DNA of 64,000 bases from Alphaproteobacteria bacterium (lineage in GTDB: Bacteria > Pseudomonadota > Alphaproteobacteria > Micavibrionales > UBA2020), in contig JBGGMV010000008.1 of NCBI GenBank assembly GCA_041287865.1, positions 70,297 to 134,296 on the forward strand, in the 5' to 3' direction. Of the stretch, positions 18,627 to 63,424 are shown piece after piece. The position numbers and the translations under genes are program-made. Numbering within the stretch: position 1 is the first letter of the stretch; every line of letters begins with the position of its first letter. The notes below the pieces were generated by a model. The model had not been told where the DNA came from and searched no databases. It was given only the letters and a program-made list of their open reading frames with translations.

Positions 18627-18636
18627 TTGACATAAT
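18627..18636 (+). promoter_or_regulatory. TTGACATAAY promoter box
   Basis: TTGACATAAT, a 17-nt spacer, then TACAAC (18650-18655). It lies upstream of ATG 18677. Confidence 0.55.
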
Positions 18637-18676
18637 AACCCGTAACTGCTACAACCTACGGTCAAAGGAGACCGCC

Positions 18677-19231
18677 ATGACCAGCCTGCGCGAGAGATTT
18701 GCCGATGCCGAAAAACAGCAAAGCCTGCCCAAGAAGGCCTATAACCAGCTGCATGGCCTGAGCGGCGAACTCGCCGCCTTTGCCAGCGGCCTGCCCAAGG
18801 CGATCGAGGACCTGGTGATCAGGGCCGAAGCCGGGCAACCCACATATACCCTCACCTGCTCCCCTTCGCTGCGCGTGGTGTTCAAGACCGGCTATTACGC
18901 GCCGTACTTACTGGATGACAACGGCCGCCGCGAATTTCCCGGCCACGACGAAATGCAGGATCTGCAGGGCTTCCGCAAGCTGCTGGACACCTGCGCCAAT
19001 CCGGCGGTCGATGTCTGCGTGCGCATGGCTTTTTCAAGGCCCAGCATCCACCGCAGTGAACTTGCACTGACCGTCGACATCAACCTGAAAGAAGCCTTTG
19101 CCGCCAGCACCTTCTCTACGCGCGGTGCAGGCGGGCAGGAGGAGCGCCACGCAATCGGCGCGGATTACATCGCCGCGCAGCAGAAGCCGTTCAAGGCGCC
19201 TGCCGTGCTCTCGCTGCAGAACAAGACCTGA
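18677..19231 (+). CDS. hypothetical protein
   Basis: 184 aa from ATG 18677, with AAGGAG at 18665-18670. No signal peptide and no recognisable domain. It ends ...QQKPFKAPAVLSLQNKT, a weak relative of the tail motif. Confidence 0.6.
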   Translation: MTSLRERFADAEKQQSLPKKAYNQLHGLSGELAAFASGLPKAIEDLVIRAEAGQPTYTLTCSPSLRVVFKTGYYAPYLLDDNGRREFPGHDEMQDLQGFRKLLDTCANPAVDVCVRMAFSRPSIHRSELALTVDINLKEAFAASTFSTRGAGGQEERHAIGADYIAAQQKPFKAPAVLSLQNKT

Positions 19232-19251
19232 AATCTTCAGATATTTGAAAA

Positions 19252-19482
19252 TTAGCGCGCAGGCGCTGCGTTCGTCTGCTCGTCACGCACGCGGGGCAGC
19301 ACATACTGCTCGCCGGCCAGCGTGGCGCGGATATTGGCCGAGACGTATTCGGCGAAGGCGCGTTGTTCGGCGGTGGTCTTCAGGGTGCGCGATACTTTCA
19401 CCACAGGCGCTTCGGCCAGCGCGGGCGCGGCCAGCAGTGCGATCAGCGCAGTGATAACGATGGATGAATAAAGCGTTTTCAT
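19252..19482 (-). CDS. small exported hypothetical protein
   Basis: 76 aa from ATG 19482. Signal peptide MKTLYSSIVITALIALLAAPALAEA. It has its own TTGACATAAT promoter box. Confidence 0.55.
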   Translation of the reverse strand: MKTLYSSIVITALIALLAAPALAEAPVVKVSRTLKTTAEQRAFAEYVSANIRATLAGEQYVLPRVRDEQTNAAPAR

Positions 19483-19541
19483 GTTCAGGATACTACCCCT
19501 CTTGATGCCCCAACGGCAAGGCATACTAGGCCCGATGCAGC

Positions 19542-19551
19542 ATTATGTCAA
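19542..19551 (-). promoter_or_regulatory. TTGACATAAY promoter box
   Basis: On the minus strand: TTGACATAAT, a 17-nt spacer, then TAGTAT (19528-19523). It lies upstream of the 19252-19482 gene. Confidence 0.6.
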
Positions 19552-19581
19552 GACAAGGTTTAGACCTGATATATAAGGATT

Positions 19582-20016
19582 TTATTGGCCGGGCGGCTTG
19601 AATTTGATCGGTTTCATCGCCTTTGTGTCAGCTTGCGTGGGCGCGCCGTCCCTGCACCAGCTGTCGAGCGCGTCCTGCCGCGCCTTCAGCGCCTTCGCCA
19701 GTTGCGACTTCATCGAGCTGGCGGCGACGGAAAAGGCGAGGCGATGATCGCCCGCTTCCTTCGACAGGCGCTGCGCAACCTCCTGCGACAGGATGAAATC
19801 ACGCTCCACCTTGTGCGTGCGGCCCTGCGCATCGAACTTCCAGCCGCTGACGTTCACAATTGCCACGGCGGTTTTCGCATCCGCATCGATTTCGATGTCC
19901 TTGAGCAGAATGCGCTGCTCGGGCGGCTGGCTGCCGCCGCCGCGCATAACGGGGCCATTGCCGCGCTGGTCGAGCACGGCGAGGACTTCTTCGACGGTGG
20001 AAAGTTTTGCGGCCAT
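19582..20016 (-). CDS. hypothetical protein with C-terminal tail motif
   Basis: 144 aa, no signal peptide; it ends ...DTKAMKPIKFKPPGQ. Its start lies 2 nt after the stop of the upstream 384-aa gene, so they probably form an operon. Confidence 0.65.
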   Translation of the reverse strand: MAAKLSTVEEVLAVLDQRGNGPVMRGGGSQPPEQRILLKDIEIDADAKTAVAIVNVSGWKFDAQGRTHKVERDFILSQEVAQRLSKEAGDHRLAFSVAASSMKSQLAKALKARQDALDSWCRDGAPTQADTKAMKPIKFKPPGQ

Positions 20017-20018
20017 GG

Positions 20019-21173
20019 TTACGGCGCCTTCGGGCCGGAAGGCTTGCGGATCGCCTTGTTTTCGGGCGCGTTCATCACGGCATCGACGATGGTGACGGCT
20101 TTCTCCATGCGCGTGCGCAGGCCTTCGTGCTGTTCAAGGCCCGATGCCGCCGCGACCTTGTGCTTGAGTTTATCAAGACGCTCCAGCGTTTCTTCGGCGG
20201 CCAGCGGATCAAAGGATTTATCCTTTTGCCATTCAAGATAACCCTTAAGCTGGCTTTCAAGGAAATGCACCAGCGCGGCATGGCTGATGGCGAGTGCTTC
20301 GGGCGTTTGGGGCGTGGTGTCATGCGGCTTGGATGATCCAAGATCGGCCCAGGGGCTGGTCTGCTCCCACAACTCGCCGATGCGCGGCGAGAAATCGGAG
20401 GGTTTCTTGTGGCCGGGGCGGATCAGGCTGTACTGGTTCAGCAGCGCGGCGGAAATCACTTCGGGGTCAGTTGTGGCGCCCGTATCGACCAGCACGCGCG
20501 CAATACCGGCATTGGTCAGCGTATAGCCGCCCAGCGGATCGCCATCCAGCGCCCAGTTTTTCATTTCGGTGTAGACTTTGCGCACCGTCGGGTGATCGGG
20601 CAGGCCGGTCGCCTCGAACGACAATGCCTTCGCGCGTTCCGCGACGATATCGGCCAGCGCCGCCTGCGCGGCGGCAAGTTTCGTTTCGGCAACGGCCAGC
20701 ATGTCTTTTTCGGTCGCACTGCCGGCGATTGCTTTCAATGCGCGTTCGTTCGCGTCCAGCACCTGCTGCACGTTGCGGTATTCGATGATATGCGCGATCT
20801 TGCCGCTGGAAATTTCAGCCTGCACAGAGTCGAGACCGATAATGGACTGCGCCAGCAGCACCTGCTGGTCGGCGGTGTTTTTGAATTTCGGATTGTCGAT
20901 GTCGATGGCATCGAGGCGTTGCAGGCATTTCGCTACTTCGGGGCTCACGGATTTTTCGAACTGTTTAGAATCCAGCGGGATAACCATGCCGTTCAGCAGC
21001 ACGCTCGCCGCCACGGCAACGGGATCGGGATCTTTCGCATGGGCCGTAATCACCTCGCCCGCCTTCACCGCTTCGCGCGCCCAATCGTCTCCGTCCTTGA
21101 AAAACGTGCGCATGACCGCATAGGCCTTTTCGACCAGCGGATGGCGCAACAGCTTGGTGTCCTCGAATTTCAT
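20019..21173 (-). CDS. hypothetical protein (two degenerate HD/SpoT-N-like segments by eye)
   Basis: 384 aa. Segments AGEVITAHAKDPDPVAVAASVLLNG and AGIARVLVDTGATTDPEVISAALLNQ resemble the VA-IL-x-D-x-AALLHD helix of HD hydrolases but lack the His-Asp. This is a weak by-eye call. The opposite-strand ORFs are junk-like. Confidence 0.6.
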   Translation of the reverse strand: MKFEDTKLLRHPLVEKAYAVMRTFFKDGDDWAREAVKAGEVITAHAKDPDPVAVAASVLLNGMVIPLDSKQFEKSVSPEVAKCLQRLDAIDIDNPKFKNTADQQVLLAQSIIGLDSVQAEISSGKIAHIIEYRNVQQVLDANERALKAIAGSATEKDMLAVAETKLAAAQAALADIVAERAKALSFEATGLPDHPTVRKVYTEMKNWALDGDPLGGYTLTNAGIARVLVDTGATTDPEVISAALLNQYSLIRPGHKKPSDFSPRIGELWEQTSPWADLGSSKPHDTTPQTPEALAISHAALVHFLESQLKGYLEWQKDKSFDPLAAEETLERLDKLKHKVAAASGLEQHEGLRTRMEKAVTIVDAVMNAPENKAIRKPSGPKAP

Positions 21174-21222
21174 GACGGCCGCCTTTAATACTGTGATGGC
21201 GGCAGGTTACGGCAGGATTGGG

Positions 21223-21232
21223 GTTATGTCAA
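21223..21232 (-). promoter_or_regulatory. TTGACATAAY promoter box
   Basis: On the minus strand: TTGACATAAC, a 17-nt spacer, then TAACCT (21209-21204). It lies upstream of ATG 21173. Confidence 0.5.
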
Positions 21233-21234
21233 TA

Positions 21235-22305
21235 TTAGCCGGTTTTGGCCTTTTTACCGGCGATATCGGCCAATTTGGCCGTCACGCCCTCTACCCCCTT
21301 CAAACCAATGGCTTCGCGGACCAGCGACAGGGTTTCCTTGGTGATCTTGCGCGCGCGTTCGGCCCCCGCATCCAGAATATCGTCGATCTTCTTCCGGTTG
21401 CCCATCAGCTCGTTATAGAGCGCGGTGGGTTTTTCGAATTCGCGTTCCAGCACTTCGTACAGTTTCTGTTTCGCGTCGCCATAGCCCATGCCGCCCTTCA
21501 GGAAGGCGTCGCGCATCGCCTGCGTTTCGTCGGGCGTGGCGAACATGGCGTAGATCTGGAAGATGCTGTTGTCGTCGGGGGTTTTAACATCGGCGGGCAG
21601 TTTGGAATCGGTGACGATTTTCATCACCAGTTTGCGGCGCGCCGCGCTGTCGATAAACACGGGGATATGGTTGCCGTAGGATTTGCTCATCTTGCGGCCG
21701 TCGAGCCCGGGCAGAACTGCGCCGCCTGCCTCCAGTTGATAGTTCGGCAGCTTCAGCACAGGCTGGAAGGTATTGTTGAAATACCCCGCCATGTCGCGCG
21801 CGAATTCGATATGCTGCACTTGATCTTTACCAACCGGCACGATGTCGGTCTGCGCGATTAAAATGTCAGCGGCCATCAGCAGCGGGTATGTATAAAGCCC
21901 CATGTTCACATCGGCGTCGGCGTCTTTGCCCTCGGCCTTGTTTTTGTCGACCGATGCCTTGTAGGCGTGTGATCTGTCCATCAGGCCCTTGGGCGTGACG
22001 GCGCAAAGAATAGTCACAAGCTCGGGGATCTCGGGAATATCCGATTGGCGATACAAAACGGTGCGCGCGGGATCAAGCCCCAGCGCCAGCCAGCAGGCCG
22101 CGACCTGATAGCTGTCTTCCTTCAGCAGTTTCGGATCGTAAACGGCGTTCAGCGCATGGTAATCGGCGATAAACAGGTATGATTTTTCATGCGCAGCGGC
22201 AAGGCGCAAAGCAGGACGAATTGCGCCGATATAATTCCCCACATGCGGCGCGCCGGTGGGCTTCACCCCCGTCAGGATTGTTTTTGCTTTTGCTGCGTCC
22301 GCCAT
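21235..22305 (-). CDS. trpS: tryptophan--tRNA ligase
   Basis: 356 aa from ATG 22305 (MADAAKAKTILTGVKPTGAPHVGNYIGAI), with a KMSKS motif. The track ORF to 22860 adds about 185 R-rich residues with no homology. Confidence 0.9.
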   Translation of the reverse strand: MADAAKAKTILTGVKPTGAPHVGNYIGAIRPALRLAAAHEKSYLFIADYHALNAVYDPKLLKEDSYQVAACWLALGLDPARTVLYRQSDIPEIPELVTILCAVTPKGLMDRSHAYKASVDKNKAEGKDADADVNMGLYTYPLLMAADILIAQTDIVPVGKDQVQHIEFARDMAGYFNNTFQPVLKLPNYQLEAGGAVLPGLDGRKMSKSYGNHIPVFIDSAARRKLVMKIVTDSKLPADVKTPDDNSIFQIYAMFATPDETQAMRDAFLKGGMGYGDAKQKLYEVLEREFEKPTALYNELMGNRKKIDDILDAGAERARKITKETLSLVREAIGLKGVEGVTAKLADIAGKKAKTG

Positions 22306-22341
22306 TTGATGTTCCTTCAAGTTTGCGCTAAGGACTATATC

Positions 22342-22941
22342 ATGTGCGGCAGATATAAACAAATCAGGGCCCTTCAGGACTATCTGGAGCTTTTGGGCAT
22401 CAAAATGACGGGCGAAGGCGCGGGCGTTCTTGCGCCCGGCATGATGGCGCCTGTCGTCACGCAACTGGGCCTCGCCGCGATGTACTGGGGCCTGACGCCT
22501 GCATGGTCGAAAGAGGATGCGAAGACGCAAGTCATCAACGCACGCGCCGAAACCATGCATGACAAGCCTTTCTTTAGAAACGCGAAACGCTGCCTTGTAC
22601 CCGTTGATGCTTTTATCGAATGGGATCGAAGTCAAAAGCCTTCGCAGGCCTTTGATATTTCGCTGCCCGCGCCTTTTGCTTTTGCGGGATTGTGGGATAG
22701 CTGGATTAATCCCGCGACTGGCGAGGTAAAAAACAGCTTCGCCATTCTCACCACCGCGCCGACGGAGCAGATGGCGAAAATCCACCACCGGATGCCGGCG
22801 ATTCTGGCGACGGCGTCGGAATGCAGGGCCTGGATGAATATGGAAATAAAAACGCCGCAAACCTATACGGCGGAGCCCCTGATCATCGCCCCTGCCGAAG
22901 CAAAGCCGAAAAAAGAAACGGCGCAGCTCAGTTTTCTATAA
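22342..22941 (+). CDS. SOS response-associated peptidase (SRAP/YedK family)
   Basis: Starts MCGRY with the catalytic Cys2. Family motifs VINARAETMHDKPFFRN, RCLVPVDAFIEW, FAFAGLW and IHHRMPAIL are present. The start was moved from 22189 to ATG 22342. Confidence 0.85.
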   Translation: MCGRYKQIRALQDYLELLGIKMTGEGAGVLAPGMMAPVVTQLGLAAMYWGLTPAWSKEDAKTQVINARAETMHDKPFFRNAKRCLVPVDAFIEWDRSQKPSQAFDISLPAPFAFAGLWDSWINPATGEVKNSFAILTTAPTEQMAKIHHRMPAILATASECRAWMNMEIKTPQTYTAEPLIIAPAEAKPKKETAQLSFL

Positions 22942-23569: not shown

Positions 23570-23600
23570 GGCGGCCCCTTAAAAGGCCGCTTGTTTTTTT
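23570..23600 (+). terminator. rho-independent terminator
   Basis: GGCGGCC (23570-23576) pairs with GGCCGC (23585-23590), followed by TTGTTTTTTT. Confidence 0.65.
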
Positions 23601-23615: not shown

Positions 23616-23625
23616 TTGACATAAT
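23616..23625 (+). promoter_or_regulatory. TTGACATAAY promoter box
   Basis: TTGACATAAT, a 17-nt spacer, then TAGTAT (23639-23644). It lies upstream of the ankyrin gene at 23695. Confidence 0.65.
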
Positions 23626-23694
23626 GTACGCGGATGGGTAGTATGGGCGCGATTTTCGGCGCAGTCTTTTGAATTCAAAAGGGTTTTCAGCGAT

Positions 23695-24558
23695 ATGGCT
23701 CCTACCCCCATCACCATCCGCCCCGACGGCCAGAGCTGGCCCACGCCACCCGCCGGCGCGCCGCCGGAAAGTGAAATGAAGGCCTTTCTGAACGACTGCG
23801 AGAAAGGCAACGAGGCCGAAGTTGTCGCCTACCTGAAGCGCTGGCCCGAATTCCCCGAAGTGAAAATGTACAATATTGAATCCACCAGCCTGATCCATGC
23901 GGCGCGGTACGGGCACGACAAGATCGTCAAAATCCTGCTGGAGGCCGGCTGCCCCGTCGGCACGCAGGATGCGGATTTGAATACGGCGCTGTTTGCAGCG
24001 CTCACCGAAGGCCGGTTCAGCACCGTGAAACTGCTGCTGGACGAGGGCGCGGATCTTTCGGTTACCCCTCGCTTCGGCAAGACGGCGGTGGCAACGGCGG
24101 TCTATTCGGGCAATGTCGAGCTCGTCAATTTCCTGCTGGAAAAGGGTGAGAAAGCCGACGGTCGCGACAGTTACGGCGGCAACGCCCTTAGCGAGCTGCA
24201 ATGGTGCAGGAACGAGGATTTCAATTTCGCCGAACTGCTGGTGAAGCATGGCGCCGACATGAATGTTGTCAGCCAGGGCGGCCATACCGCGCTCTCCCAA
24301 TGCGTGCAGCAGGGCCGCACCAAATTCGTCCGTCACCTGCTGGATCTCGGCGTCGAGCTGCGCGGGCCCTTCCTGCCCCACAACGATGACATCAAGCAGA
24401 TGCTCGCCGACGAACCCTATCGCCGCGAGAGTGTTCGCGTCGCCGCAATCGAGGCCGCCGCCGCCGAAATCCGCGCACGCGAAAAGGCCATCGAAAACGA
24501 AGTGAACGCGGGCCTTCCCTCCTCCGTCAAAGTGCGTCCCTTCCGCCTGAAAATGTAA
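23695..24558 (+). CDS. ankyrin-repeat protein
   Basis: Repeats include TSLIHAARYGHDKIVKILLEAGCPVGTQDADLNTALFAAL, GKTAVATAVYSGNVELVNFLLEKGEKADGRD and GHTALSQCVQQGRTKFVRHLLDLG. It ends ...SVKVRPFRLKM. Confidence 0.85.
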   Translation: MAPTPITIRPDGQSWPTPPAGAPPESEMKAFLNDCEKGNEAEVVAYLKRWPEFPEVKMYNIESTSLIHAARYGHDKIVKILLEAGCPVGTQDADLNTALFAALTEGRFSTVKLLLDEGADLSVTPRFGKTAVATAVYSGNVELVNFLLEKGEKADGRDSYGGNALSELQWCRNEDFNFAELLVKHGADMNVVSQGGHTALSQCVQQGRTKFVRHLLDLGVELRGPFLPHNDDIKQMLADEPYRRESVRVAAIEAAAAEIRAREKAIENEVNAGLPSSVKVRPFRLKM

Positions 24559-32291: not shown

Positions 32292-32370
32292 ATTTTTGTG
32301 ATCCCCTGCATCTTTACCTCAGTTGACTTTAAATTAAGAGACACTAGTGTCAATCGCACAAGCGACCGCC

Positions 32371-32538
32371 ACGCGGGAGAGACTGGCTCATTTGCCGGCG
32401 CCGAAGGAGCAACCACCCCGGAAACTCTCAGGCAAAAGGACCGCGCGGCGACTTCGTTACTCTGGAAAGCGGCTATAGCCGCGCCAAAGGAGCAAGCGGT
32501 TGAAATGCCGCGGAATCTCTAAGGCAAAGAAGACAGAG
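32371..32538 (+). promoter_or_regulatory. tandem glycine riboswitch (two aptamers)
   Basis: Aptamer 1 (32371-32445): GGGAGAG...CGCCGAAGGAGCAAC...CTCTCAGGCAAAAGGACC. Aptamer 2 (32460-32538): CTCTGGAAAG...CGCCAAAGGAGCAAG...TCTCTAAGGCAAAGAAGACAGAG. Both match the conserved cores and lie directly upstream of gcvT. Confidence 0.85.
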
Positions 32539-32577
32539 CGGGGCAAGTTTCCGAACGACTATGAAAAGGAATTTGCC

Positions 32578-33708
32578 TTGGAACCAGCCCTGCAAAAAGA
32601 CGCCCCCCTCCTCAAAACGCCCCTCTGGGCGCTCCATACCGCCAAGGGCGGAAAAATGGTGCCCTTCGCCGGCTATGACATGCCGGTGCAGTACGATGGC
32701 CTCGGCGTCCTGAAAGAACACGTTCACACGCGCGAACACGCCGGCCTTTTCGATGTCTCGCACATGGGGCAGGCGATTTTGAGCAGCAGTTCAGGTGATC
32801 CCGCGATCGCGCTCGAAAAAATCGTGCCGGGCGACATTCGCGGGCTCGAAGTCGGCAAGATGCGCTACACCGTTCTGCTGAACGACAAGGGCGGCATCCT
32901 CGACGACCTGATGGTCACGCGCTGGGATGAAAAAACCCTGCTGGTGATCGTCAACGCCGCCTGCAAGGAAAAAGATTTCGCCTATATCAACAAAACCATC
33001 GGCGGCCAGACGAAACTGGAATACCTCGGCACCCGCGCGCTCGTCGCGCTGCAAGGGCCGAAAGCCGAACAGGTGGCCAGCATCTTCTTCCCCGATGTGC
33101 TGGGCATGAAATTCATGTCGGCCACAAAGACGACGTACAAAGGCCACGAGATTTTCCTGTCGCGTTCGGGCTATACGGGCGAAGACGGTTTCGAAATCTC
33201 GATCCCCGGCGGCTTCGCTGAAGCCTTCTGCAAGGAAATGCTGGAGGAACAAGAAGTCAAACTCATCGGCCTTGGCGCGCGCGATAGTTTGCGGCTCGAA
33301 GCCGGCCTTTGCCTTTACGGCCATGATATCGACGAAAACTCCACCCCCATCGATGCGAACCTGAAATGGGTTATCCCGAAACGCCGCCGCGAGGAAGCCA
33401 ATTTCCCCGGTGCCGAGAAAATTCTCAGCCAGCTGTCGGGCGGCACATATATATTGCGCGTCGGCATCAAGCCCGAAGGAGCAGCCCCCATCCGCGAAAA
33501 AACCGAGCTGTTTGTCGGCGACAAAAAGGTCGGCGTGGTGACATCCGGCGGCTTCGGCCCCACCTTCGGCGGCCCTGTCGCCATGGGTTACGTCGATGCA
33601 AACTTTGCCAAGACCGGCACGAAGCTCAACGCCATGCTGCGCGGCACCCCGCGCCCCTGCGAAGTGGCTGCGCTGCCGTTTGTGAAACACAATTACAAAA
33701 AAGATTAA
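32578..33708 (+). CDS. gcvT: glycine cleavage system aminomethyltransferase T
   Basis: LLKTPLWALHTAKGGKMVPFAGYDMPVQY is the typical GcvT N-terminus. I propose the in-frame TTG at 32578, with AAGGA 7 nt upstream. The track ATG at 32500 lies inside riboswitch aptamer 2. Confidence 0.85.
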   Translation: MEPALQKDAPLLKTPLWALHTAKGGKMVPFAGYDMPVQYDGLGVLKEHVHTREHAGLFDVSHMGQAILSSSSGDPAIALEKIVPGDIRGLEVGKMRYTVLLNDKGGILDDLMVTRWDEKTLLVIVNAACKEKDFAYINKTIGGQTKLEYLGTRALVALQGPKAEQVASIFFPDVLGMKFMSATKTTYKGHEIFLSRSGYTGEDGFEISIPGGFAEAFCKEMLEEQEVKLIGLGARDSLRLEAGLCLYGHDIDENSTPIDANLKWVIPKRRREEANFPGAEKILSQLSGGTYILRVGIKPEGAAPIREKTELFVGDKKVGVVTSGGFGPTFGGPVAMGYVDANFAKTGTKLNAMLRGTPRPCEVAALPFVKHNYKKD

Positions 33709-33723
33709 ACGAGGGAAAAACAC

Positions 33724-34098: not shown

Positions 34099-34102
34099 GC
34101 GC

Positions 34103-38895: not shown

Positions 38896-38949
38896 GGAAA
38901 AACGCCCTTCTTCGAATTTCAAACAAACCCCTTCTAACAACCCTCAAAA

Positions 38950-38959
38950 ATTATGTCAA
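38950..38959 (-). promoter_or_regulatory. TTGACATAAY promoter box
   Basis: On the minus strand: TTGACATAAT, a 17-nt spacer, then TAGAAG (38936-38931). Confidence 0.45.
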
Positions 38960-45544: not shown

Positions 45545-45554
45545 ATAATGACAA
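45545..45554 (-). promoter_or_regulatory. variant promoter box TTGTCATTAT
   Basis: One mismatch to TTGACATTAT, located about 65 nt upstream of ATG 45482. No convincing -10 is present. Confidence 0.25.
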
Positions 45555-51900: not shown

Positions 51901-52060
51901 CGGCGTTAGCATCACTTCATTCACCCAGGCCGACATCGACGCCGGCCGCCTGCGCTATGTGCATACAGCAAATGGCGCCGCGAACGATTCCTTCACCTTC
52001 ACCGTCTCGGACGGCGCGGCATCGATCGCCGCCTCCAGCTTCGCCATCGATGTGACGTAA
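48971..52060 (+). CDS. large cadherin-like (CSPG-type) repeat protein
   Basis: 1029 aa. An about 147-aa Ala/Ser/Thr-rich N-terminal region is followed by eight about 111-aa repeats (NTGxTVxEGG..ITxxQL...DxDT....I.YTVT..P..GRLE....PG..ITSFTQADIDAGRIRFVH.G.E....SF.F.VSDG......F.F.VTPVDDAP). No signal peptide and no RTX or other C-terminal domain. GGAG lies 5 nt upstream of the ATG. Confidence 0.85.
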   Translation: MADAITSFFLLQANRSGSASAQIAPSALELGSDTLTRNPRLETLGKLFAPPSGASNIAGLDSFLAVATAAKTAAGAPARNSKDALKQAPELRKNDSAALDVFIKRETAAESRLKQLLQASTAAAATSTTSKPAETEAATAAASITRNSGLRITEGGDGIINSRRLNTNIPGARPQDIIYTVNESPRNGRLELTAKPGEAVTTFTQQDLNLGRLRYVSNGSEARGDSFDFTVRGGEQELSGSFGISVAPVNDAPAVSVNTGLTVAEGDTATLTTAQLSVSDPDSRAEDTVFTVTGGPQHGRLEYAASPGLAITSFTQGDIAAGRVRYVSDGSEVTSDSFTFTASDGISATAAETFNINVTPVDDSATIVNNTGATVTEGGSAVLSETQLSSTDVDTAVEDIIYNVTSGPSGGYLEFTDNAGTAITSFTQADVNSGRVRYVHGGGEAPADSFNFTVTGSTATTASASFAFTVTPVDDAPQLQANTGATLNEGGTTAITAAQLSVSDVDTAASGIVYNITAGPQHGRLEYASSPGTAVTSFTQADIDSGRIVYIHDGSETTSDSFTFTAADATTTLGASSFALNVTPVDDAPVITNTDGTVVEGGTSTITSSQLGASDPDTAAANITYTVTAAPTTGRLENATNPGVSITSFTQADIDAGNIRFVHDGGEAPTSSFGFSVSDGTTTQAGNTFTFGVIPVDDAPVLAANTGGTLAEGGSSIITSAQLRTTDVDTAAANITYTVTSGPTNGQLERTTNPGVGITSFSQADIDAGRIRFVHNGSETTTASFGFSVSDGTTTQAGNTFGFSVTPVDDAPVLTNTGGTIAEGGSSIISSSQLRATDPDTAAANITYTVTAAPTTGRLESATNPGVSITSFTQADIDAGLIRFVHNGGEAPTASFGFSVSDGTTTQAGNTFTFGVTPVNDAPVLATNTGTSVARRDTTTITSAQLQTTDVDNTPSSLTYTVTASPTRGRLELSTNPGVSITSFTQADIDAGRLRYVHTANGAANDSFTFTVSDGAASIAASSFAIDVT
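49412..52057 (+). repeat. eight tandem about 333-336-nt coding repeats
   Basis: Repeat boundaries are marked by V[DN]D[AS][AP] at aa 249, 360, 473, 585, 696, 808 and 919. Units 5-7 (about 50738-51736) are near-identical at protein level. Confidence 0.85.
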
Positions 52061-55902: not shown

Positions 55903-55925
55903 TGGCGGGTATCTCCTTTACAGCA

Positions 55926-55936
55926 TTATGTATAAT
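55926..55936. promoter_or_regulatory. TTATGTATAAT box inside the perfect palindrome GCATTAT-GT-ATAATGC
   Basis: The palindrome spans 55924-55939. On the minus strand TTGACG (55957-55952), a 17-nt spacer and TATACA (55934-55929) form a promoter for the 55902 gene. Confidence 0.5.
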
Positions 55937-55990
55937 GCCGCTACGGCGGCGCGTCAACCGGTTTATATATAAATTATTGATTTATAAGGA

Positions 55991-56355: not shown

Positions 56356-57372
56356 TTATTTTTGGAAACTTACGGGCGCGGCCTGCACAAGCGAAATATC
56401 CTCTGCCCCCGTCGCCAGCATGACAAGACGATCGAGCCCCAGCGCATTGCCGCTGCAGGCCGGCAGGCCATGCTCCAGCGCCTTGAGGAAATCTTCGTCG
56501 ACCGGATAATCCTCGCCATAGACTTTTTTACGGAGCGCGACATCGGCGATGAAACGTTCGCGCTGCACCTTCGCGTCGGTCAGCTCGCCGAAGGCATTCG
56601 CCAGTTCGATGCCGCAGACATAAACTTCGAACCGCTCCGCAAAGCGCGCATCGGTGGGTTTCGGGCGCGAGAGCGCGGCCATCGAAACGGGATAGTCGTA
56701 GATGATGGAGGGCGCGGGCGAGCCAAGACGCGGTTCCACCTTCTCCATCAAAATTTTCAGCAGCGCATTTTCCCAGTCGTCATGCGGCGAGACATAGACG
56801 CCGATGCGCTTCGCCTCCGCGTTGATATGGGCGAGGTCGCAGAGGTTATTCGATATATCCACGCCCGCATATTTCTTCAGCGCATCCACCACGGTAATTT
56901 TTTCCCATGGCGCGGCAGCATCGCAGGTGCGCCCCTCAACCGTCACGGGTTTCACGAGGATGCTGCGGATAAGATCCGCCGTTTCATCCATCATTTCGGT
57001 GTAATCCATGCCAAGGCTGTACCATTCCAGCATGGCGAATTCGGGGCTGTGCCATTTCGAGCCTTCGCAGTTGCGGAAGACTTTCGCCAGCTGGTAAATT
57101 TTCGGCATGCCGGCAACCAGCAGTTTTTTCATGGCGAATTCGGGACTGGTGTGCAGGTACATCGTATGCTTCGACTGCCTGTCCGCCGTGACCAGTTCGG
57201 TGCGGAAGGCCTGTATATGCGCCTCCATGCAGGGAGCCACCTGCAGCGCGGGTGTTTCGACCTCAAGATAGCCACGCGTATCGAAAAAATCCCGCACCGC
57301 GCCGAAAATGCGCGCGCGTTCCTTTAAATAAGGAACCTTCTTCATAAATAAATCGGGATGCCACCAGTTCAT
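56356..57372 (-). CDS. epmA: EF-P--(R)-beta-lysine ligase (EpmA/GenX/PoxA, truncated class II LysRS-like)
   Basis: 338 aa from ATG 57372 (MNWWHPDLF...). It has YLHTSPEFAMKKLLVAGMPKIYQLAKVFRNCEGSKWHSPEFAMLEWY and class II motif 3, GNALGLDRLVML. The track ORF to 57660 adds about 96 junk residues that overlap the ankyrin gene. Confidence 0.85.
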   Translation of the reverse strand: MNWWHPDLFMKKVPYLKERARIFGAVRDFFDTRGYLEVETPALQVAPCMEAHIQAFRTELVTADRQSKHTMYLHTSPEFAMKKLLVAGMPKIYQLAKVFRNCEGSKWHSPEFAMLEWYSLGMDYTEMMDETADLIRSILVKPVTVEGRTCDAAAPWEKITVVDALKKYAGVDISNNLCDLAHINAEAKRIGVYVSPHDDWENALLKILMEKVEPRLGSPAPSIIYDYPVSMAALSRPKPTDARFAERFEVYVCGIELANAFGELTDAKVQRERFIADVALRKKVYGEDYPVDEDFLKALEHGLPACSGNALGLDRLVMLATGAEDISLVQAAPVSFQK

Positions 57373-57373
57373 T

Positions 57374-58015
57374 TTACTGGTCGAACTGTTTGAGGCGGAT
57401 TGTTTTGACAGGGACAGGCGCGCCCGCGCCGCCATAGACGGCGGACGAAATTTCCGCCTGCAATGCGGCTTCCTTTTCTTCCTTCGCAATACGCGCGACT
57501 TCGGAGAAGTGGAAGGCGATGCTGTCGGCGACTTTCTTGCCGGCGGGCCAGCGCGTATCTTCTTCGCCGCGCTGATAGATATTCCGGTGCTGCGCATCCT
57601 CCACCATCGGGTCGGCGCCGTGCCTGACCAGCCAGAGCGCGCGGTCGGTCGTATTGTCACGCAGGTCCATGTTGTAGGCCCAGTGCAGCGGGGTCATGCC
57701 CTTCTCGCCCGCCTTCAGGTTCACGTCGGCCCTGGCATCTTTCACCAGCCATTCGGCGACGTCATAGCGGCGTTCCATCAACGCGCGCACCAGCGGGCCT
57801 TCGCCGTCGTCATCGACGACATTGGCTTCGGCCCCGTAATTGAACAGCAGCTTCGCCATGTCGAGATCGCCGCGCCATGCCGCGTGGAACAAGGCCGTGC
57901 GGCCGTTCACATCCGTCGCGCCCGCATCGGCCTTTTCGGCCAGAAGTTCTTCGGCGCGGCCGGTATTGCCGTCCTTCACCGCCTTCATCAGCATTTCGTC
58001 GAATTTGCGCGCCAT
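57374..58015 (-). CDS. ankyrin-repeat protein
   Basis: GRTALFHAAWRGDLDMAKLLFNYGAEANVVDDDGEGPLVRAL and GMTPLHWAYN are ankyrin repeats. It ends ...VPVKTIRLKQFDQ. Its stop lies 1 nt before the epmA start. Confidence 0.85.
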   Translation of the reverse strand: MARKFDEMLMKAVKDGNTGRAEELLAEKADAGATDVNGRTALFHAAWRGDLDMAKLLFNYGAEANVVDDDGEGPLVRALMERRYDVAEWLVKDARADVNLKAGEKGMTPLHWAYNMDLRDNTTDRALWLVRHGADPMVEDAQHRNIYQRGEEDTRWPAGKKVADSIAFHFSEVARIAKEEKEAALQAEISSAVYGGAGAPVPVKTIRLKQFDQ

Positions 58016-58063
58016 GGAAAAAACCTGTCGGATTAAGTACCGGATTTATAACAATAATATTAC

Positions 58064-58073
58064 ATAATGTCAA
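58064..58073 (-). promoter_or_regulatory. TTGACATAAY-type promoter box (TTGACATTAT)
   Basis: On the minus strand: TTGACATTAT, a 17-nt spacer, then TATAAA (58050-58045). It lies upstream of the ankyrin gene start at 58015. Confidence 0.6.
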
Positions 58074-58089
58074 CCGCTTGGCTATCTAT

Positions 58090-58099
58090 TTGACATAAT
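58090..58099 (+). promoter_or_regulatory. TTGACATAAY promoter box
   Basis: TTGACATAAT, an 18-nt spacer, then TATAGT (58114-58119). It lies upstream of ATG 58144 and is back-to-back with the minus-strand box 16 bp away. Confidence 0.6.
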
Positions 58100-58143
58100 G
58101 TCTAATTTTGACCTATAGTCGCGGGATTAAGACAGGGATTCTC

Positions 58144-58860
58144 ATGACTCGCACTATTGATGCCCAACTGGTTGAAGAAGCACTCGCCGAAATCGCCCTC
58201 GTCGACACGGGTGGCCAGATGGCCAAAGTGATAGAGGACGCGCGCCATGAAGCCTGCATATCACGGCACTGCGAATACGACGTCAAACCCGCAAGCCTTG
58301 CGCTCCTCATCACCGGCAGCGACAAGGCCTGCGAAACGCTGGCCAAAGCCTATACCAAGGCTCTTTACGGTTTGGGGCTGATCGACGGCAAGGCCGGCAA
58401 TCCCGCGTCCAAAACCATCGACTGGACAGGGCAGATCTGCGACAACGAAGCCAGCCGCACCATGCAGGAGCAGAGCTGGGCCAGCCGCAAAATGACGGAG
58501 GCCGGCAAGGCGGCGCGCAGCGGCACGCTGGTCATTCGCGACATCCACCGCAAGCCTTATGAAGGCTCTCCCGACGAGGCCGAGGCCTCCGGCCCCGCCC
58601 TGAAAGGCGCTCTGGAAGCCGTCACGGAATTCGTCACCAAAGGCACCTGGGGCCCCCGCACCCCCGTCGTCGTGCTGACCGGGCCCGAGGTCGAAACCCG
58701 CGCCTTTATCGCCGCAACGCCGGAATTAGCCAAGCTTTTCAACAATAAATCCGTGTACGCCGACGCCTGCCCGCCGCTGCCGGAGGTCTATTCGACCGAA
58801 CTGGAAAGCCCGATCACCACCCGCCGCCCGCTGACCTTCAAGCCGCGCAACATTTCTTGA
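58144..58860 (+). CDS. hypothetical protein, degenerate AAA+ (CbxX/SpoVK-like) fold by eye, with C-terminal tail motif
   Basis: 238 aa from ATG 58144. LALLITGSDKACETLAKAYTKALYGLGLI occupies the position of Walker A (GxxGxGKT is lost), SGTLVIRDIHRK that of Walker B (DE is lost), and PVVVLTGPEVETRAFIAATPELAKLF that of sensor 1 and the following helix. It ends ...TTRRPLTFKPRNIS. Confidence 0.6.
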   Translation: MTRTIDAQLVEEALAEIALVDTGGQMAKVIEDARHEACISRHCEYDVKPASLALLITGSDKACETLAKAYTKALYGLGLIDGKAGNPASKTIDWTGQICDNEASRTMQEQSWASRKMTEAGKAARSGTLVIRDIHRKPYEGSPDEAEASGPALKGALEAVTEFVTKGTWGPRTPVVVLTGPEVETRAFIAATPELAKLFNNKSVYADACPPLPEVYSTELESPITTRRPLTFKPRNIS

Positions 58861-60500: not shown

Positions 60501-60588
60501 CGGAATTCCCCGATGCCGCTGGTTGCGGGCGTCGGAACAGGATCAAACAACGGCAACCGGATAACTTTAACAAGAAAGAGTAATACAA

Positions 60589-60987: not shown

Positions 60988-60998
60988 AGGTTATCCGG

Positions 60999-61529
60999 TT
61001 GCGCAAAGCGGCGGCATCACCCGAACAGGGCTCACTTGCCTGCATGGCCGAAATCGTCGGCGTGCATGGCATCAGGGGAATGGTCAAGCTGAAGGTTTTC
61101 AGCGACAACCCCGACAGCCTCACGGGTGGTGCCCCGCTTTGCGATTCCGACGGGAAACTTTATAAACTTGCCTCATTGGCCCCCCACGGCAATATCTGGC
61201 TAGCACAGGTGGAAGGTCTTACCGACCGCACCCTCGCCGAAAAACTTCGCGGCACGAAATTATACCGCCAGCGCGACAGCCTCCCCGAGATCAAGAAAAA
61301 AGACCCCTATTACCACGCCGACCTGATCGGCATGGCAGCCCTGCTGCCGGACAAAACCTCCCTTGGCACCGTCATCGCCATCGCCAATTTCGGCGCAGGC
61401 GATTTGCTTGAAATAAAACCCGCCAAAGGGCAAAGCTTCTACGTCCCCTTCACCAATGCCGTCGTCCCGCATGTGGACGTGAAGGCCAAGACCCTCACCG
61501 TCGACCCGCCGCCGGGGCTGCTGGACTAG
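60999..61529 (+). CDS. rimM: ribosome maturation factor RimM
   Basis: CMAEIVGVHGIRGMVKLKVFSDNP is the RimM N-terminal motif and a PRC barrel forms the C-terminus. The start is uncertain (TTG 60999 vs ATG 61044). The conserved region begins before Met16, which favours the upstream start. Confidence 0.8.
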   Translation: MRKAAASPEQGSLACMAEIVGVHGIRGMVKLKVFSDNPDSLTGGAPLCDSDGKLYKLASLAPHGNIWLAQVEGLTDRTLAEKLRGTKLYRQRDSLPEIKKKDPYYHADLIGMAALLPDKTSLGTVIAIANFGAGDLLEIKPAKGQSFYVPFTNAVVPHVDVKAKTLTVDPPPGLLD

Positions 61530-61562
61530 CCAAGAACCATTTTGTTTTACACCTGACAAAAA

Positions 61563-62069
61563 GTGCCTGCCAACGTGAGATACATATTATTTTTCCTGTT
61601 TTTCCTGATCGTTTCCGGCTACACCGCCTTCACTTTTTGGGAAAATGATTTTTATTTAAAAGCCTTGCCTTCCCATTTGGGTGTGCAAGAAATTTTAAAA
61701 AAACAAAGCGAAGGTTCCTTTCGGGAGTCATGCGGCGGCGTTATCTTCCAGCTCTCGAAGTCAACAATCTCGGCAATTAATAAAGAAGGCGTTACGTTCC
61801 TCAATCGGGACTTATATGGACGGGGTTATCAGGAAAAAAACGATAGAGAGCGCGCATACTACACTTACAACAAATGGACAAAAACACCCATCAAACTTAC
61901 CGACGGATTATCGCCAGGAATGCATTGTCTGCTGAAAGACGACAAGGATATGGCGAAAAAAGTTAGATTCGCCGCGCAGCATGAAGGCTCCTTTTACACC
62001 GTAAAAAGCGAGGCTGAACTGCTTCTCATACCCGAACTCGGGCTTTTGTTTTATGCATACTTTGGTTAG
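61563..62069 (+). CDS. hypothetical membrane-anchored protein, low GC
   Basis: GTG start and the N-terminal hydrophobic segment ILFFLFFLIVSGYTAFTFW. GC is about 40% on two hand-counted 60-nt lines, against about 60% for the surroundings. It occupies the position where trmD is expected. Confidence 0.5.
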   Translation: MPANVRYILFFLFFLIVSGYTAFTFWENDFYLKALPSHLGVQEILKKQSEGSFRESCGGVIFQLSKSTISAINKEGVTFLNRDLYGRGYQEKNDRERAYYTYNKWTKTPIKLTDGLSPGMHCLLKDDKDMAKKVRFAAQHEGSFYTVKSEAELLLIPELGLLFYAYFG

Positions 62070-62167
62070 CCCATAAATCCAGAGACGGCAAGGCTGCCGT
62101 GGCGCAGGCGGTTGGATGCCCGCGCATGCATGCACCGCATGCTTCGCATGGGAGGGCATGGAAAAGT

Positions 62168-62752
62168 TTAGGGGTGGCTACTCTGCGGCTGCTTCAGCTT
62201 CACCACCTTCATCGGCGTGACGGCTTCGCCTGTCACGACGGGCGCGGCGGCGGCCTTGAAATCTTTTCCCGCGTCCAGCGTGCGGAGCAGCTGCGCCCGC
62301 GCCGCGGCAAGCTCTTCGGGCGGGCGGGTGGCGAGAATTCTGTCGCCGTTATGGGCGAAGTAGCGATCAATGCTCTCCGCGCTGCCCTTGACGATTCCGG
62401 CGCCAGCCGCAGAACCCATCGTCGTGATCAGGCCGCCGATGCAGAACAGCCCGGAGGCGATCCCCGCCTCCATCAGCTTGACCGTCAGCAGCCAGGATAT
62501 GAACGCCGGCACTGACACCGCAAGATAAAGCGCGCCGAAGGTCGCGGCAGCCGAGCAGATAAGCCCTCCCACCGCCATCATATTGGCATGCGCGACAAAT
62601 CCCTTCCTGACGCGCGGCGCGACCGGCCTGAGCAATTCGGCGGGGCCTGTCCTGCAGTTGTTGTATAACTCGCGGTGCATGCCGCAGAGAGGCGAATTCC
62701 ACAGCCATTTTGCAGCCCCCTGCATTTTTTCCAGCACGTCCCACGTTTTCAT
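62168..62752 (-). CDS. hypothetical protein with central bilobed hydrophobic domain and C-terminal tail motif
   Basis: 194 aa. The about 60-aa hydrophobic block is MMAVGGLICSAAATFGALYLAVSVPAFISWLLTVKLMEAGIASGLFCIGGLITTMGSAAGAGIV. It ends ...VTPMKVVKLKQPQSSHP. The start overlaps the upstream paralog's stop (ATGA). Confidence 0.7.
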   Translation of the reverse strand: MKTWDVLEKMQGAAKWLWNSPLCGMHRELYNNCRTGPAELLRPVAPRVRKGFVAHANMMAVGGLICSAAATFGALYLAVSVPAFISWLLTVKLMEAGIASGLFCIGGLITTMGSAAGAGIVKGSAESIDRYFAHNGDRILATRPPEELAAARAQLLRTLDAGKDFKAAAAPVVTGEAVTPMKVVKLKQPQSSHP

Positions 62753-63327
62753 GGCGCGGCCTCCGTCTGGCCCGGATGCTTCAGCTTCAGCGCCTTCATC
62801 GGCGTCACCGCCGCGCCGGTCGTCACGTCCGCGCTGCGGTTAAAAATCCCTTTCGCGGGTTTCGGCAGCGGCGCGGGCGCCTCGTTGGGCGGCAGCAGAG
62901 TAGTGCCCGGCTGAAGCGCTTCGAGATCGCGCTCGAAAAGGAAATAACGTTCGGTGCGGCGCGCGGATTTGCGCATCGCGCCCACCGCCACGGTCAGCGC
63001 CGCCAGCGCGGCCGTCGCCGCGAAAACCGGCAGCGCGGCGGCCGTGACCGTCGTCGCCGCGTAAACCAGCGCCGCCATCTTGAGGACCTGGTCGCCCGCC
63101 AGCACCGCGCCCGCGAAAGCCGTCATGCCCGAGGCCATGGTGCCCTGCAGGTAATACTGCGGAATGTGTTTGCGGCAGGCGTCGAGCGCACGATCGGCAA
63201 GTTTCTCACCGGCCTCGTGCAGCGGTTGCAGCACGCGCCACGGGCCACGCAGCCATGCGTCGCGGCTGCCCTTGCGGACAGCGTCAACGGTCGGCTGCAT
63301 AAACTGCGGCATCTTCATCAGGGGCAC
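62749..63327 (-). CDS. hypothetical protein with central hydrophobic domain and C-terminal tail motif (paralog)
   Basis: 192 aa. The hydrophobic block is MTAFAGAVLAGDQVLKMAALVYAATTVTAAALPVFAATAALAALTVAVGAM. It ends ...VTPMKALKLKHPGQTEAAP. Confidence 0.7.
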   Translation of the reverse strand: MPLMKMPQFMQPTVDAVRKGSRDAWLRGPWRVLQPLHEAGEKLADRALDACRKHIPQYYLQGTMASGMTAFAGAVLAGDQVLKMAALVYAATTVTAAALPVFAATAALAALTVAVGAMRKSARRTERYFLFERDLEALQPGTTLLPPNEAPAPLPKPAKGIFNRSADVTTGAAVTPMKALKLKHPGQTEAAP

Positions 63328-63414
63328 ACACTTTCTTTTGCCGCCTGTTTTCTTGTGCCGTTTTTTTCAGGCAACGGCTTTTACAGGCTTGATAAACCTA
63401 CCAAAGCCGGATGC

Positions 63415-63424
63415 GTTATGTCAA
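63415..63424 (-). promoter_or_regulatory. TTGACATAAY promoter box
   Basis: On the minus strand: TTGACATAAC, an 18-nt spacer, then TAGGTT (63400-63395). It lies upstream of ATG 63327. Confidence 0.55.

Follow-up and report, generated by a model that had tools for sequence, protein, structure and literature searches.

The 9-mer TTGACATAA marks what its sequence context predicts to be a lineage-specific promoter class of the Micavibrionales, found mainly ahead of genes for ankyrin proteins and proteins of unknown function. Eight sites of this kind occur in the 64,000-nucleotide stretch of DNA analysed here (the window), which derives from an uncultured Micavibrio-like alphaproteobacterium, and we consider it reasonably probable that they are working primary RpoD/sigma70-type promoters in which a selected TAA behind the -35 hexamer defines a Micavibrionales promoter class. 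Comparison within the window and among relatives reveals the anatomy, conservation, clade specificity and gene-class bias of these boxes.

An earlier note on the same DNA had reported eight copies of a TTGACATAAY box. Seven are exact, at 18627(+), 19551(-), 21232(-), 23616(+), 38959(-), 58090(+) and 63424(-), minus-strand coordinates in that note being the 5' end of the box, and the eighth is the variant TTGACATTAT at 58064-58073(-); dinucleotide shuffles of the window yielded a mean of 0.06 exact copies and a maximum of one. All eight are indeed intergenic and directed at a downstream gene, once the over-long ileS and trpS open reading frames are shortened to begin at their true starts, 18542 and 22305, and the start codons lie 50-106 nt downstream. 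The hexamer TTGACA occurs 18 times in the window, 10 times in intergenic and 8 times in coding regions, and is followed by TWAY in 8/10 intergenic versus 0/8 coding copies (Fisher p=0.001).

Each box is followed, after 17 nt at six sites and 18 nt at two, by a hexamer beginning with TA; the hexamers listed previously (TACAAC, TAGTAT, TAACCT, TAGTAT, TAGAAG, TATAAA, TATAGT and TAGGTT) are all correct. The probability of TA at a spacer of 17 or 18 is 0.114 in the window's intergenic DNA, and that of finding it at all eight sites is approximately 3e-8, which bears out the proposal of TTGACA as the -35 in a sigma70-type promoter. Three of the boxes also rank among the top matches of an independent consensus scan. 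By their sequence, the eight boxes are best described as sigma70/RpoD-type promoters of the alphaproteobacterial kind, whose -35 is perfect and whose -10 is loose. TTGACA would serve as the -35 hexamer, 17-18 bp ahead of an alphaproteobacterial-style -10 (TAnnnN, last T optional), and transcription would begin about 35 nt past the box start, giving leaders of 15-70 nt. We infer that the sites fire, are strong and are expressed together. The last -10 base (-7) is T in 5/8 window sites and in 22/33 sites across the clade, of which 26/33 have a 17-bp spacer. Published alphaproteobacterial sigma70 (RpoD) promoters have a TTG-containing -35, a 17-bp spacer and a -10 often lacking T at -7 (Myers et al. 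2021, PMC8407463). The box sites resemble these in their TTGACA, mostly 17-bp spacer, TA-initial -10 and last T in approximately two thirds of cases, and are unlike them in the invariant, clade-specific TAA directly after the hexamer.

The predicted promoter of the 184-aa tail-motif gene 18677-19231 spans 18627..18655(+), with box TTGACATAAT at 18627-18636, a 17-nt spacer, -10 TACAAC at 18650-18655 and a predicted start near 18662; its exact 10-mer and -10 region are kept in the nearest relative (L165 12836, TTGACATAATCC...CTAGAAC), in L167 and in L169. Ahead of a small secreted 76-aa protein (19252-19482), the predicted promoter at 19523..19551(-) has TTGACATAAT at 19542-19551 and, beyond a 17-nt spacer, TAGTAT at 19523-19528; it matches the consensus at 10/12 positions and is kept at L165 11613, L167 11746 and L169 5485. 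The operon 21173-to-19582, encoding tail-motif proteins of 384 and 144 aa, would be served by 21204..21232(-), where box TTGACATAAC (21223-21232), a 17-nt spacer and TAACCT (21204-21209) begin 2 nt past the trpS stop codon. A terminator-like hairpin at 23571-23590 just precedes the predicted promoter of the tail-motif ankyrin protein 23695-24558, at 23616..23644(+) (box TTGACATAAT 23616-23625, 17-nt spacer, TAGTAT 23639-23644), which is kept at L165 6862 (TTGACATAATCA...GTAGTAT). The operon 38895-to-38136, for a 100-aa and a DUF7919-like 151-aa protein, has its predicted promoter at 38931..38959(-) (box TTGACATAAT 38950-38959, 17-nt spacer, TAGAAG 38931-38936), a region missing from several relatives.

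Two predicted promoters lie back-to-back with 16 bp between their -35 hexamers. That of the ankyrin protein 57374-58015 and epmA, 58045..58073(-), carries the variant box TTGACATTAT, a 17-nt spacer and TATAAA at 58045-58050. Its partner at 58090..58119(+), before the 238-aa tail-motif gene 58144-58860, has TTGACATAAT at 58090-58099, an 18-nt spacer and TATAGT at 58114-58119; an 11/12 consensus match, it is kept at L002 9236 (TTGACATAATAC), while its L004 ortholog, TGGACATAAC, retains TAA behind an altered hexamer. The operon 63318-to-62168, for two membrane proteins with the tail motif, would be read from 63395..63424(-) (box TTGACATAAC 63415-63424, 18-nt spacer, TAGGTT 63395-63400) with a long leader of ~70 nt; in the L002 ortholog, with TTGACATAAC at 2122, the start codon is likewise far from the box (~100 nt). 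A degenerate box in the window, TTGTCATTAT at 45545..45554(-), lies upstream of 45045-45482 and has no convincing -10 at 16-18 nt. Homologs of that gene in L008, L014 and L019 have exact TTGACATAA(C/G/A) upstream, and this variant, singled out previously, is a true degenerate ortholog of those boxes.

Conservation between relatives, sampled as ~20-kb neighbourhoods of two loci rather than as whole genomes, delimits the element. In eight genomes whose 384-aa-gene proteins share 43-82% identity, TTGACATAA, the 17-nt spacer and TAnnnT are constant in the promoter of that gene and all other spacer bases vary, position 10 being C, C, G, A, A, T, G and C. The Ank-epmA promoter, aligned across 11 genomes (alignment A1), has as invariant columns the 15-nt block TTGACATTATG.AAT, the TA of the -10 and one A lying 17 nt before the box; the ankyrin proteins behind it are orthologous yet strongly divergent. 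The window and the nearest relative share the exact 10-mer in 4/4 box pairs and differ at positions 11-12 in all four. Across the clade's 37 TTGACATAA sites, position 10 is free (T14, C7, A10, G6). The extension beyond the hexamer that had been proposed is thus genuine, and it is under selection, being invariant in orthologous promoters (up to 8-11 genomes) while nearby spacer bases change. The 10-mer, however, is not the conserved unit; the core is the 9-mer, and neither position 10 nor the ACATWATGT palindrome is conserved. The TAA after the hexamer (~-29 to -27) would belong to the recognised element, read base-specifically and held by selection.

The 9-mer is abundant in the clade and not beyond it: Micavibrionales loci totalling 573 kb contain 37 copies (2.0 expected), 33 of them accompanied by a -10 TA, whereas 841 kb from other alphaproteobacteria contain 2 (2.5 expected) and show no enrichment. 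TTGACA with a -10 TA is found 73 times in 525 kb of Micavibrionales DNA and 24 times in the 841 kb of other alphaproteobacteria. In the Micavibrionales, the triplet following these 73 perfect hexamers is TAA in 27 and TTA in 11, with any other triplet present at most six times.

The claim that the boxes stand mostly before tail-motif genes stood in part. They are enriched there (6/10 tail-motif units versus 2/29 other units in the window; p=0.0014), but 4/10 tail-motif units use other strong promoters, namely TTGACG-N17-TATACA, TTGACT-N18-TATTTT and the extended -10 sequences GTTATGTAGTAT and TGTTATAAT. Box-driven genes without the tail also exist, such as that of the small secreted protein, and the box gene set is not one clean functional group. 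In relatives, a box also precedes a likely SPFH/band-7-type membrane protein, judged by N-terminal sequence and not by a Pfam scan. Scanning of 21 box-driven products gave ORFans, ankyrin proteins and Lcl_C proteins, and none of them reached the threshold for a housekeeping enzyme family. Housekeeping promoters differ from the box, as previously noted: that of tkt is TTGACGCGCG and that of ffh TTGACATTTC, and the box TAA is absent from the tkt, fba and other central-metabolism promoters of the window. The promoters of ffh, a perM-like gene and rplS across 16 genomes are conserved and have a good -35, and TAA is not fixed in them. In individual genomes, TAA does follow some imperfect hexamers ahead of housekeeping genes (rplS, TTGATATAA; gap, TTAACATAA; a MiaB/RimO-type gene, TTTACATAA). 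The box class would sit chiefly before lineage-specific genes, encoding ankyrin, basic C-terminal-tail and small secreted or membrane proteins.

Several other readings of the boxes were weighed. Repetition itself, and nothing more, speaks for a dispersed repeat, a mobile element or a chance cluster, a scarcely credible reading that we regard as refuted: just 0.06 copies are expected, the eight sites align in the 10-mer alone with unrelated flanks (alignment A2), and other genomes have boxes at orthologous positions. The option that TGaCATAAT acts as an extended -10 (TG-a-CATAAT), starting transcription ~7 nt after the box with no need of a -35, draws on agreement with TGnTATAAT at 8/9 positions and on the organism's use of extended -10 promoters elsewhere (TATGTATAAT is present three times). 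Its would-be near-invariant T at -7, however, is C in 2/8 window sites and is freely replaced in the eight orthologs of the 384-aa-gene promoter, and it leaves unexplained the TA kept exactly 17-18 nt downstream in 8/8 window and 33/37 clade sites; with the one position free and the other fixed, we reject this option and give it almost no weight. It is very improbable that a dimeric repressor covers the -35 by binding a palindromic operator (ACAT-W-ATGT or TTGACAT-A-ATGTCAA) of which the box would be one half. The ACATWATGT extension described earlier is present, but in 3/8 sites only, and the long inverted repeat at 58064-58099 is two back-to-back promoters, which in L002 are 18 nt apart instead of 16. 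The second half is missing in 5/8 sites, positions 11-12 are not conserved, and the dyad is broken in the Ank orthologs, which keep GG instead of GT; ortholog comparison thus largely refutes the operator.

Reading of the boxes by an alternative sigma factor such as an RpoH paralog is improbable. The limitation of the class to lineage-specific genes would suit it, as would the expression of sigma-32 in attack-phase Micavibrio aeruginosavorus, up 12-fold in a phase whose top-expressed genes are hypothetical (PMC3189940). TTGACA-N17-TAnnnT is nevertheless the RpoD pattern, the -10 style is that of ffh and other housekeeping promoters, and alphaproteobacterial RpoH promoters confine high information in the -35 to TTG (PMC3441632). 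A weightier alternative, though still an unlikely one, dispenses with a regulon: TTGACATAA would be the optimal -35 region for the clade's RNA polymerase, through sigma, alpha or core contacts or DNA shape, genes in need of very high constitutive expression would have converged on it, and the gene bias would reflect expression level only. The perfect hexamer, the -10 style shared with housekeeping promoters and the clade's greater richness in near-consensus promoters favour it. AT-rich patches at distances of 1-7 and 22-25 nt on the upstream side of the box, which resemble UP subsites and share an approximate helical phase with TAA, together with TAA at imperfect housekeeping hexamers, fit such a general 'best possible promoter' without a regulator. 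Against it, the good -35 promoters of ffh, the perM-like gene and rplS do not keep TAA, those of tkt, fba and central metabolism lack it, and the strictness with which T-A-A is preferred to other A/T triplets speaks for a base-specific readout. No contact of the polymerase with positions -29 to -27 is known to us.

As to what reads the TAA of these putative RpoD promoters, we lean, tentatively, towards a clade-specific protein that contacts it from beside sigma region 4, over polymerase acting by itself. This protein would activate or repress, or would be a factor associated with sigma; no candidate regulator for the box was found. A perfect -35 is atypical of activator-dependent promoters, which counts against our reading. 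Like the extended -10 TGn or the UP element, accessory elements that RNA polymerase reads itself, TAA would be a short extra element that strengthens a promoter beside a core hexamer, but it lies downstream of the -35, and conserved housekeeping promoters in the same genomes lack it. The 9-mer is also contained in the -35 region of phage lambda PL (TTGACATAAATACC), among the strongest known sigma70 promoters. There, the bases downstream of the -35 belong to the OL operator, and this single promoter offers no evidence for TAA as a promoter element; the shared 9-mer is probably a coincidence.

It is tempting to compare the box with regulon boxes that overlap the -35, such as the PmrA box of Legionella and Coxiella Dot/Icm effector genes, the PhoB pho box, the CtrA box and the phage T4 MotA box at -30. 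It shares with them the form of a ~10-bp element at ~-35 to -26, placed at many scattered effector-like genes (ankyrin genes and ORFans that share a C-terminal tail). The regulon boxes stand in for a poor -35 and mostly consist of tandem or spaced repeats, whereas the TAA box accompanies a perfect -35 in single copy, and neither TTAA-N7-TTAA nor an 11-bp direct repeat is present at the box sites. If a clade-specific protein does contact TAA, the box set would be a regulon, and by likeness to these systems the TAA box could tag genes for coordinated expression.

The 10-mer TTGACATAAY matches the window exactly at seven sites, 18627, 23616 and 58090 on the forward strand and 19551, 21232, 38959 and 63424 on the reverse strand (each coordinate being the 5' end of the box), and an eighth, variant site, TTGACATTAT, occupies minus-strand positions 58064-58073. 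Dinucleotide-preserving shuffles of this ~59% G+C stretch yielded a mean of 0.06 matches and never more than one, so that the repetition reported in the earlier note holds. So does the reported placement: after correction of the ileS start to 18542 and the trpS start to 22305, eight of eight boxes are intergenic and directed at a correctly oriented gene, 50-106 nt from its start codon. The long trpS ORF at 21235-22860 (minus strand) is an artefact; the true start is divergent from that of an SRAP gene (SOS-response-associated peptidase, MCGRY...; 22342-22941, plus strand), with 36 bp between the two. The window contains 18 TTGACA hexamers, and T-W-A-Y follows eight of the ten that are intergenic, compared with none of the eight in coding regions (Fisher p=0.001).

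Alignment of the eight regions (A2) revealed invariant columns at nine of the ten box positions and at an AA immediately preceding the start codons, at which TTTTCCATG was not significant. Because similarity is confined to the 10-mer, with unrelated flanks, a dispersed repeat, MITE or mobile element is ruled out. A reading as GANTC methylation sites was likewise tested and rejected, and Rfam and tRNA scans found no RNA gene at or downstream of the boxes. Elsewhere in the window, a glycine riboswitch aptamer (RF00504, 71.6 bits) occupies 32364-32453 on the plus strand, within the leader preceding gcvT-gcvH-gcvP, an operon at 32500-36988.

The layout of the sites, TTGACA, 17-18 bp and TAnnnN, is that of a sigma70/RpoD promoter. 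The -35 hexamer is perfect in all eight, and a hexamer starting with TA follows at a spacing of 17 nt in six and 18 nt in two; TA at either spacing has a probability of 0.114 in the intergenic DNA of the window, giving ~3e-8 for eight out of eight. The proposal that TTGACA acts as a -35 element is thereby borne out. The last -10 position, -7, is T in five of the eight, the DNA before the box has AT-rich, UP-like patches at distances of 1-7 and 22-25 nt, a terminator-like hairpin precedes the box at 23616, and a strict E. coli-type scan placed 19551, 23616 and 58090 first among the promoter-like sites of their regions. Alphaproteobacterial sigma70 promoters often lack the T at -7, keep TTG in the -35 and have a modal spacer of 17 bp (PMC8407463), and the boxes share this -35, the 17-bp spacing and the optional T. 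Judged by this anatomy, they are RpoD-type promoters of an alphaproteobacterial flavour, from which transcription would begin ~35 nt after the start of the box; such promoters would be strong and expressed together.

The organism can be placed through EpmA (56356-57327), whose best relatives occur in metagenome-assembled genomes that carry the labels Micavibrio, Alphaproteobacteria and Bdellovibrionales; the first of them, 91% identical, is from an uncultured Micavibrio sp. (GCA_964575605.1). One protein encoded in the window is identical to ACAH80_01445 of a metagenome-assembled genome at NCBI. Some 25 loci (69-91% identity) share a backbone of gcvP, tkt, gap, fba, epmA, ffh, rpsP and rimM, and it is against orthologous promoters that the limits of the element become visible. 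The 384-aa protein encoded at 20019-21173, behind the box at 21232, has 29 homolog clusters (43-94% identity), and its gene occupies the equivalent position behind trpS in seven further genomes. In all eight genomes its promoter carries TTGACATAA, a spacer of 17 and a -10 of TAnnnT, the rest of the spacer being unrelated from genome to genome. In the nearest relative (the assembly of the best EpmA match), the orthologs of 18627, 19551, 21232 and 23616 keep the exact 10-mer and the -10, while positions 11-12 read AA/CC, GC/AT, CC/GC and GT/CA; the box is also kept in the orthologs of 58090 and 63424. The ankyrin protein before epmA is orthologous in eleven genomes and strongly diverged in sequence, and in its promoter TTGACATTATG.AAT, the TA of the -10 and one isolated A, 17 nt before the box, are invariant (alignment A1). 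A variant, TTGTCATTAT, precedes 45045-45482, and homologous genes in three relatives carry the exact TTGACATAA; this variant, pointed out in the earlier note, is a degenerate ortholog of their boxes.

From these comparisons the 10-mer is therefore narrowed to the 9-mer TTGACATAA (TTGACATTA at one promoter), the Y originally written at position 10 not being conserved. The significance attached in the earlier note to the extension past the -35 hexamer stands, TAA being kept in orthologous promoters while the neighbouring spacer changes. The alignments show TTGACATAA and the -10 TA at its fixed distance to be under purifying selection. As separate observations, the promoter before the ankyrin gene and epmA (58045-58073, minus strand) conserves 15 nt, TTGACATTATG[G/T]AAT, in the eleven genomes, five to six bases beyond the shared box, the additional bases, TGKAAT, lying at about -25 to -20. 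In L166, a locus of a Micavibrionales relative, a 22-nt unit containing the box (ccccaacaTTGACATAAGTAta) is tandemly duplicated in two copies at 9913-9956, before the ortholog of the 384-aa gene, which indicates that the promoter region is able to duplicate locally; the same locus has a LuxR/LuxI quorum-sensing pair (Autoind_bind+GerE / Autoind_synth) beside ileS at 18945-20550, in this one Micavibrionales relative.

Across 573 kb of Micavibrionales loci, TTGACATAA occurs 37 times against 2.0 expected under a first-order model, and in 33 of the 37 sites TA follows at 16-18 nt (in 26 at 17 nt), with T at -7 in 22 of these 33. The 9-mer occurs about as often as expected in other alphaproteobacteria (2 versus 2.5 in 841 kb of loci) and in unrelated metagenome loci (7 versus 5.2 in 684 kb). 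A metagenome scan with TrpS gave distant relatives only (<=59% identity, no syntenic loci), which were used as negative controls. Of 73 perfect hexamers with a -10 TA, 27 are followed directly by TAA and 11 by TTA, the latter being without exception orthologs of one promoter; the preference is thus base-specific and not merely for A/T-rich sequence, because no other triplet exceeds six. Hexamers with one or two mismatches showed no clear extension, and the real-looking exceptions were a handful: TTGATATAA, TTAACATAA and TTTACATAA, upstream of rplS, gap and a MiaB/RimO-type gene, respectively. These counts show a promoter class restricted to Micavibrionales.

Several other readings of the box were weighed against the same alignments. 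The sequence could be taken as an extended -10 (TG-a-CATAAT, of the TGnTATAAT type); the T that would have to be invariant at -7 is C in two of the eight window sites, position 10 reads C, C, G, A, A, T, G and C in eight orthologs of the 384-aa-gene promoter, and its clade-wide composition is T14/C7/A10/G6. This reading fails because position 10 is variable and the conserved downstream TA is left unexplained. The palindrome ACATWATGT, noted earlier as an extension of the box in several copies, would suit the operator of a dimeric repressor, and did not survive comparison: it is present in just three of eight sites and its second half is not conserved in relatives, positions 11-12 differing in four of four pairs between the window and its nearest relative, with GG there in the ankyrin orthologs. 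Neither a tandem direct repeat of ~11-bp period nor TTAA-N7-TTAA was present within ±60 nt of the eight sites, which disposes of a CtrA/PhoB/PmrA-type box. RpoH promoters are informative in the -35 at TTG only and have a -10 with a conserved A at -12 and T at -9, resembling E. coli sigma32 promoters (PMC3441632); here every base of TTGACATAA is fixed, with a -10 of (C/G)TAnnaT as at housekeeping promoters, and an RpoH (sigma32)-type promoter is rejected.

Housekeeping promoters do differ from the box, as had been claimed: TAA is not retained at conserved ones that have a good -35. In the window the ffh promoter is TTGACATTTC, against TTGACACTTTGC in relatives, and that of a perM-like gene is TTGACACTAG or TTGACAGTAATG, TAA being kept in neither; the rplS promoter has, among 16 genomes, TTGAww followed by TAA, TAT, TTC, TCA or TAC; and tkt (TTGACGCGCG), fba (TTGATTTGGC) and fadD (TTTACATGAC) are without TAA. 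Between the rplS promoter and start codon, a leader of ~150 nt is well conserved in 16 Micavibrionales loci (for example 831-999 of L162, a contig of the same strain, and 2378-2600 of the relative L007), with conserved segments …ccggtaatgaaca…ccgccggcgcgcaaccg…cgaatataacgggttccga…; Rfam gave no match to it in the three scanned relatives that have it (L015, L018 and L019), and it may be an L19 autoregulatory leader.

In the window, housekeeping genes are intermixed with many ankyrin proteins and ORFans. A basic C-terminal tail, K/R-x-hydrophobic-K/R-hydrophobic-K/R and often then P, ends ~15 of roughly 62 proteins, encoded by the genes at 59, 544, 7195, 9054, 18677, 19582, 20019, 23695, 54729, 55306, 57374, 58144, 62168, 62749 and 63452; MKTLKIK, VKTIRLK, MKALKLK and RPFRLK are examples. 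Because it is kept in orthologs despite strong divergence of the proteins, the tail may be a sorting or secretion signal. The link drawn earlier between box and tail stands as an enrichment, with the box in 6 of 10 tail-motif units and 2 of 29 others (p=0.0014; units of the window assigned by hand, a regular expression and crude gene caller on relatives having too little power), and is incomplete, with exceptions in both directions. Four tail-motif units, 7195, 9054, 55306-54729 and 64007-63452 (the last promoter seen on a same-strain contig running past the window end), have other near-consensus promoters, including TTGACT-N18-TATTTT and TTGACG-N17-TATACA, and extended -10 elements, GTTATGTAGTAT before 7195 and TGTTATAAT before the 64007 operon. 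Conversely, the box also stands before 19252-19482, a small protein with a signal peptide, and in relatives it precedes an Lcl_C-domain protein and a likely SPFH/band-7-type membrane protein (judged from its N-terminal sequence). Box promoters stand mainly before lineage-specific, effector-like genes. A regulator search found no DNA-binding domain in any box-driven product.

Other features of this gene complement deserve mention. A second recurrent promoter type, the extended -10 TATGTATAAT of the TRTGnTATAAT kind, has three exact copies on the plus strand (9862-9871, 11829-11838 and 55927-55936) and also occurs at 7160-7171; it precedes two large hypothetical genes, 9892 and 11904, and the third copy, in the 55903-55990 spacer, overlaps the promoter of 55306-54729 (TTGACG-N17-TATACA), which is on the other strand. 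A 1029-aa protein (48971-52060, plus strand) has an unusual composition, with second-codon-position G+C of 0.57, internal self-similarity in cross-genome blastn and an extended -10, TGCTATAAT, upstream; a surface protein rich in repeats, or an RTX-like one, is a possible identity. The rpsP-rimM-trmD-rplS operon, elsewhere universal, is interrupted between rimM and trmD by a lineage-specific cluster, 61563-64000 and on to ~64726 in window-equivalent coordinates on the same-strain contig. Its members are 61563-62069, a pair of membrane proteins with the tail motif (62168-63327), 63452-63994 and a protein of 239 aa.

Taken together, the sequence comparisons define the boxes as a Micavibrionales-specific RpoD-type promoter class with a conserved 3-bp extension of the -35 hexamer. 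We know of no description of a base-specific conserved element immediately downstream of that hexamer, and our literature search found no paper on a Micavibrio promoter motif or on the box sequence as a regulatory element. As to what reads TAA, we lean towards a separate protein binding next to sigma region 4, since the triplet is base-specific, clade-specific and absent from conserved housekeeping promoters. A somewhat less probable reading is that the clade's polymerase itself prefers TAA and that the full consensus is attained only where selection for expression is strongest; the perfect -35, the UP-like AT-rich patches upstream of the box, a -10 style equal to that of housekeeping promoters and the occasional TAA after imperfect hexamers at housekeeping genes all speak for it. 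It is tempting to speculate, while judging it rather unlikely, that a Micavibrionales-specific DNA-binding protein or sigma-associated factor reads TAA and so switches on or off a dispersed set of lineage-specific genes, for ankyrin, C-terminal-tail and small secreted proteins, as an arsenal for host or prey interaction, much as PmrA controls the Dot/Icm effectors of Legionella and Coxiella.

Micavibrio-like bacteria live by obligate predation, and to our knowledge there is no genetic system for them. Most of the highly expressed attack-phase genes of M. aeruginosavorus are hypothetical or of unknown function, and neither type III nor type IV secretion is evident in it (PMC3189940); for these reasons a promoter tag shared by ORFans is worth following. 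Around trpS, ffh and tkt, M. aeruginosavorus ARL-13 and the lineage studied here have different gene orders. A 9-bp promoter tag offers a cheap route to candidate lists of co-expressed genes in any Micavibrionales genome, and box promoters are potential strong native promoters for future tools. Common control of the box genes, which we advance as a hypothesis, would tie ankyrin and C-terminal-tail proteins together. Should the polymerase read TAA, the triplet would be a new basal promoter element; should a separate factor do so, that factor would probably be a lifestyle regulator of the lineage, and, if it does govern such an arsenal, the box would be a genome-wide marker for locating effectors.
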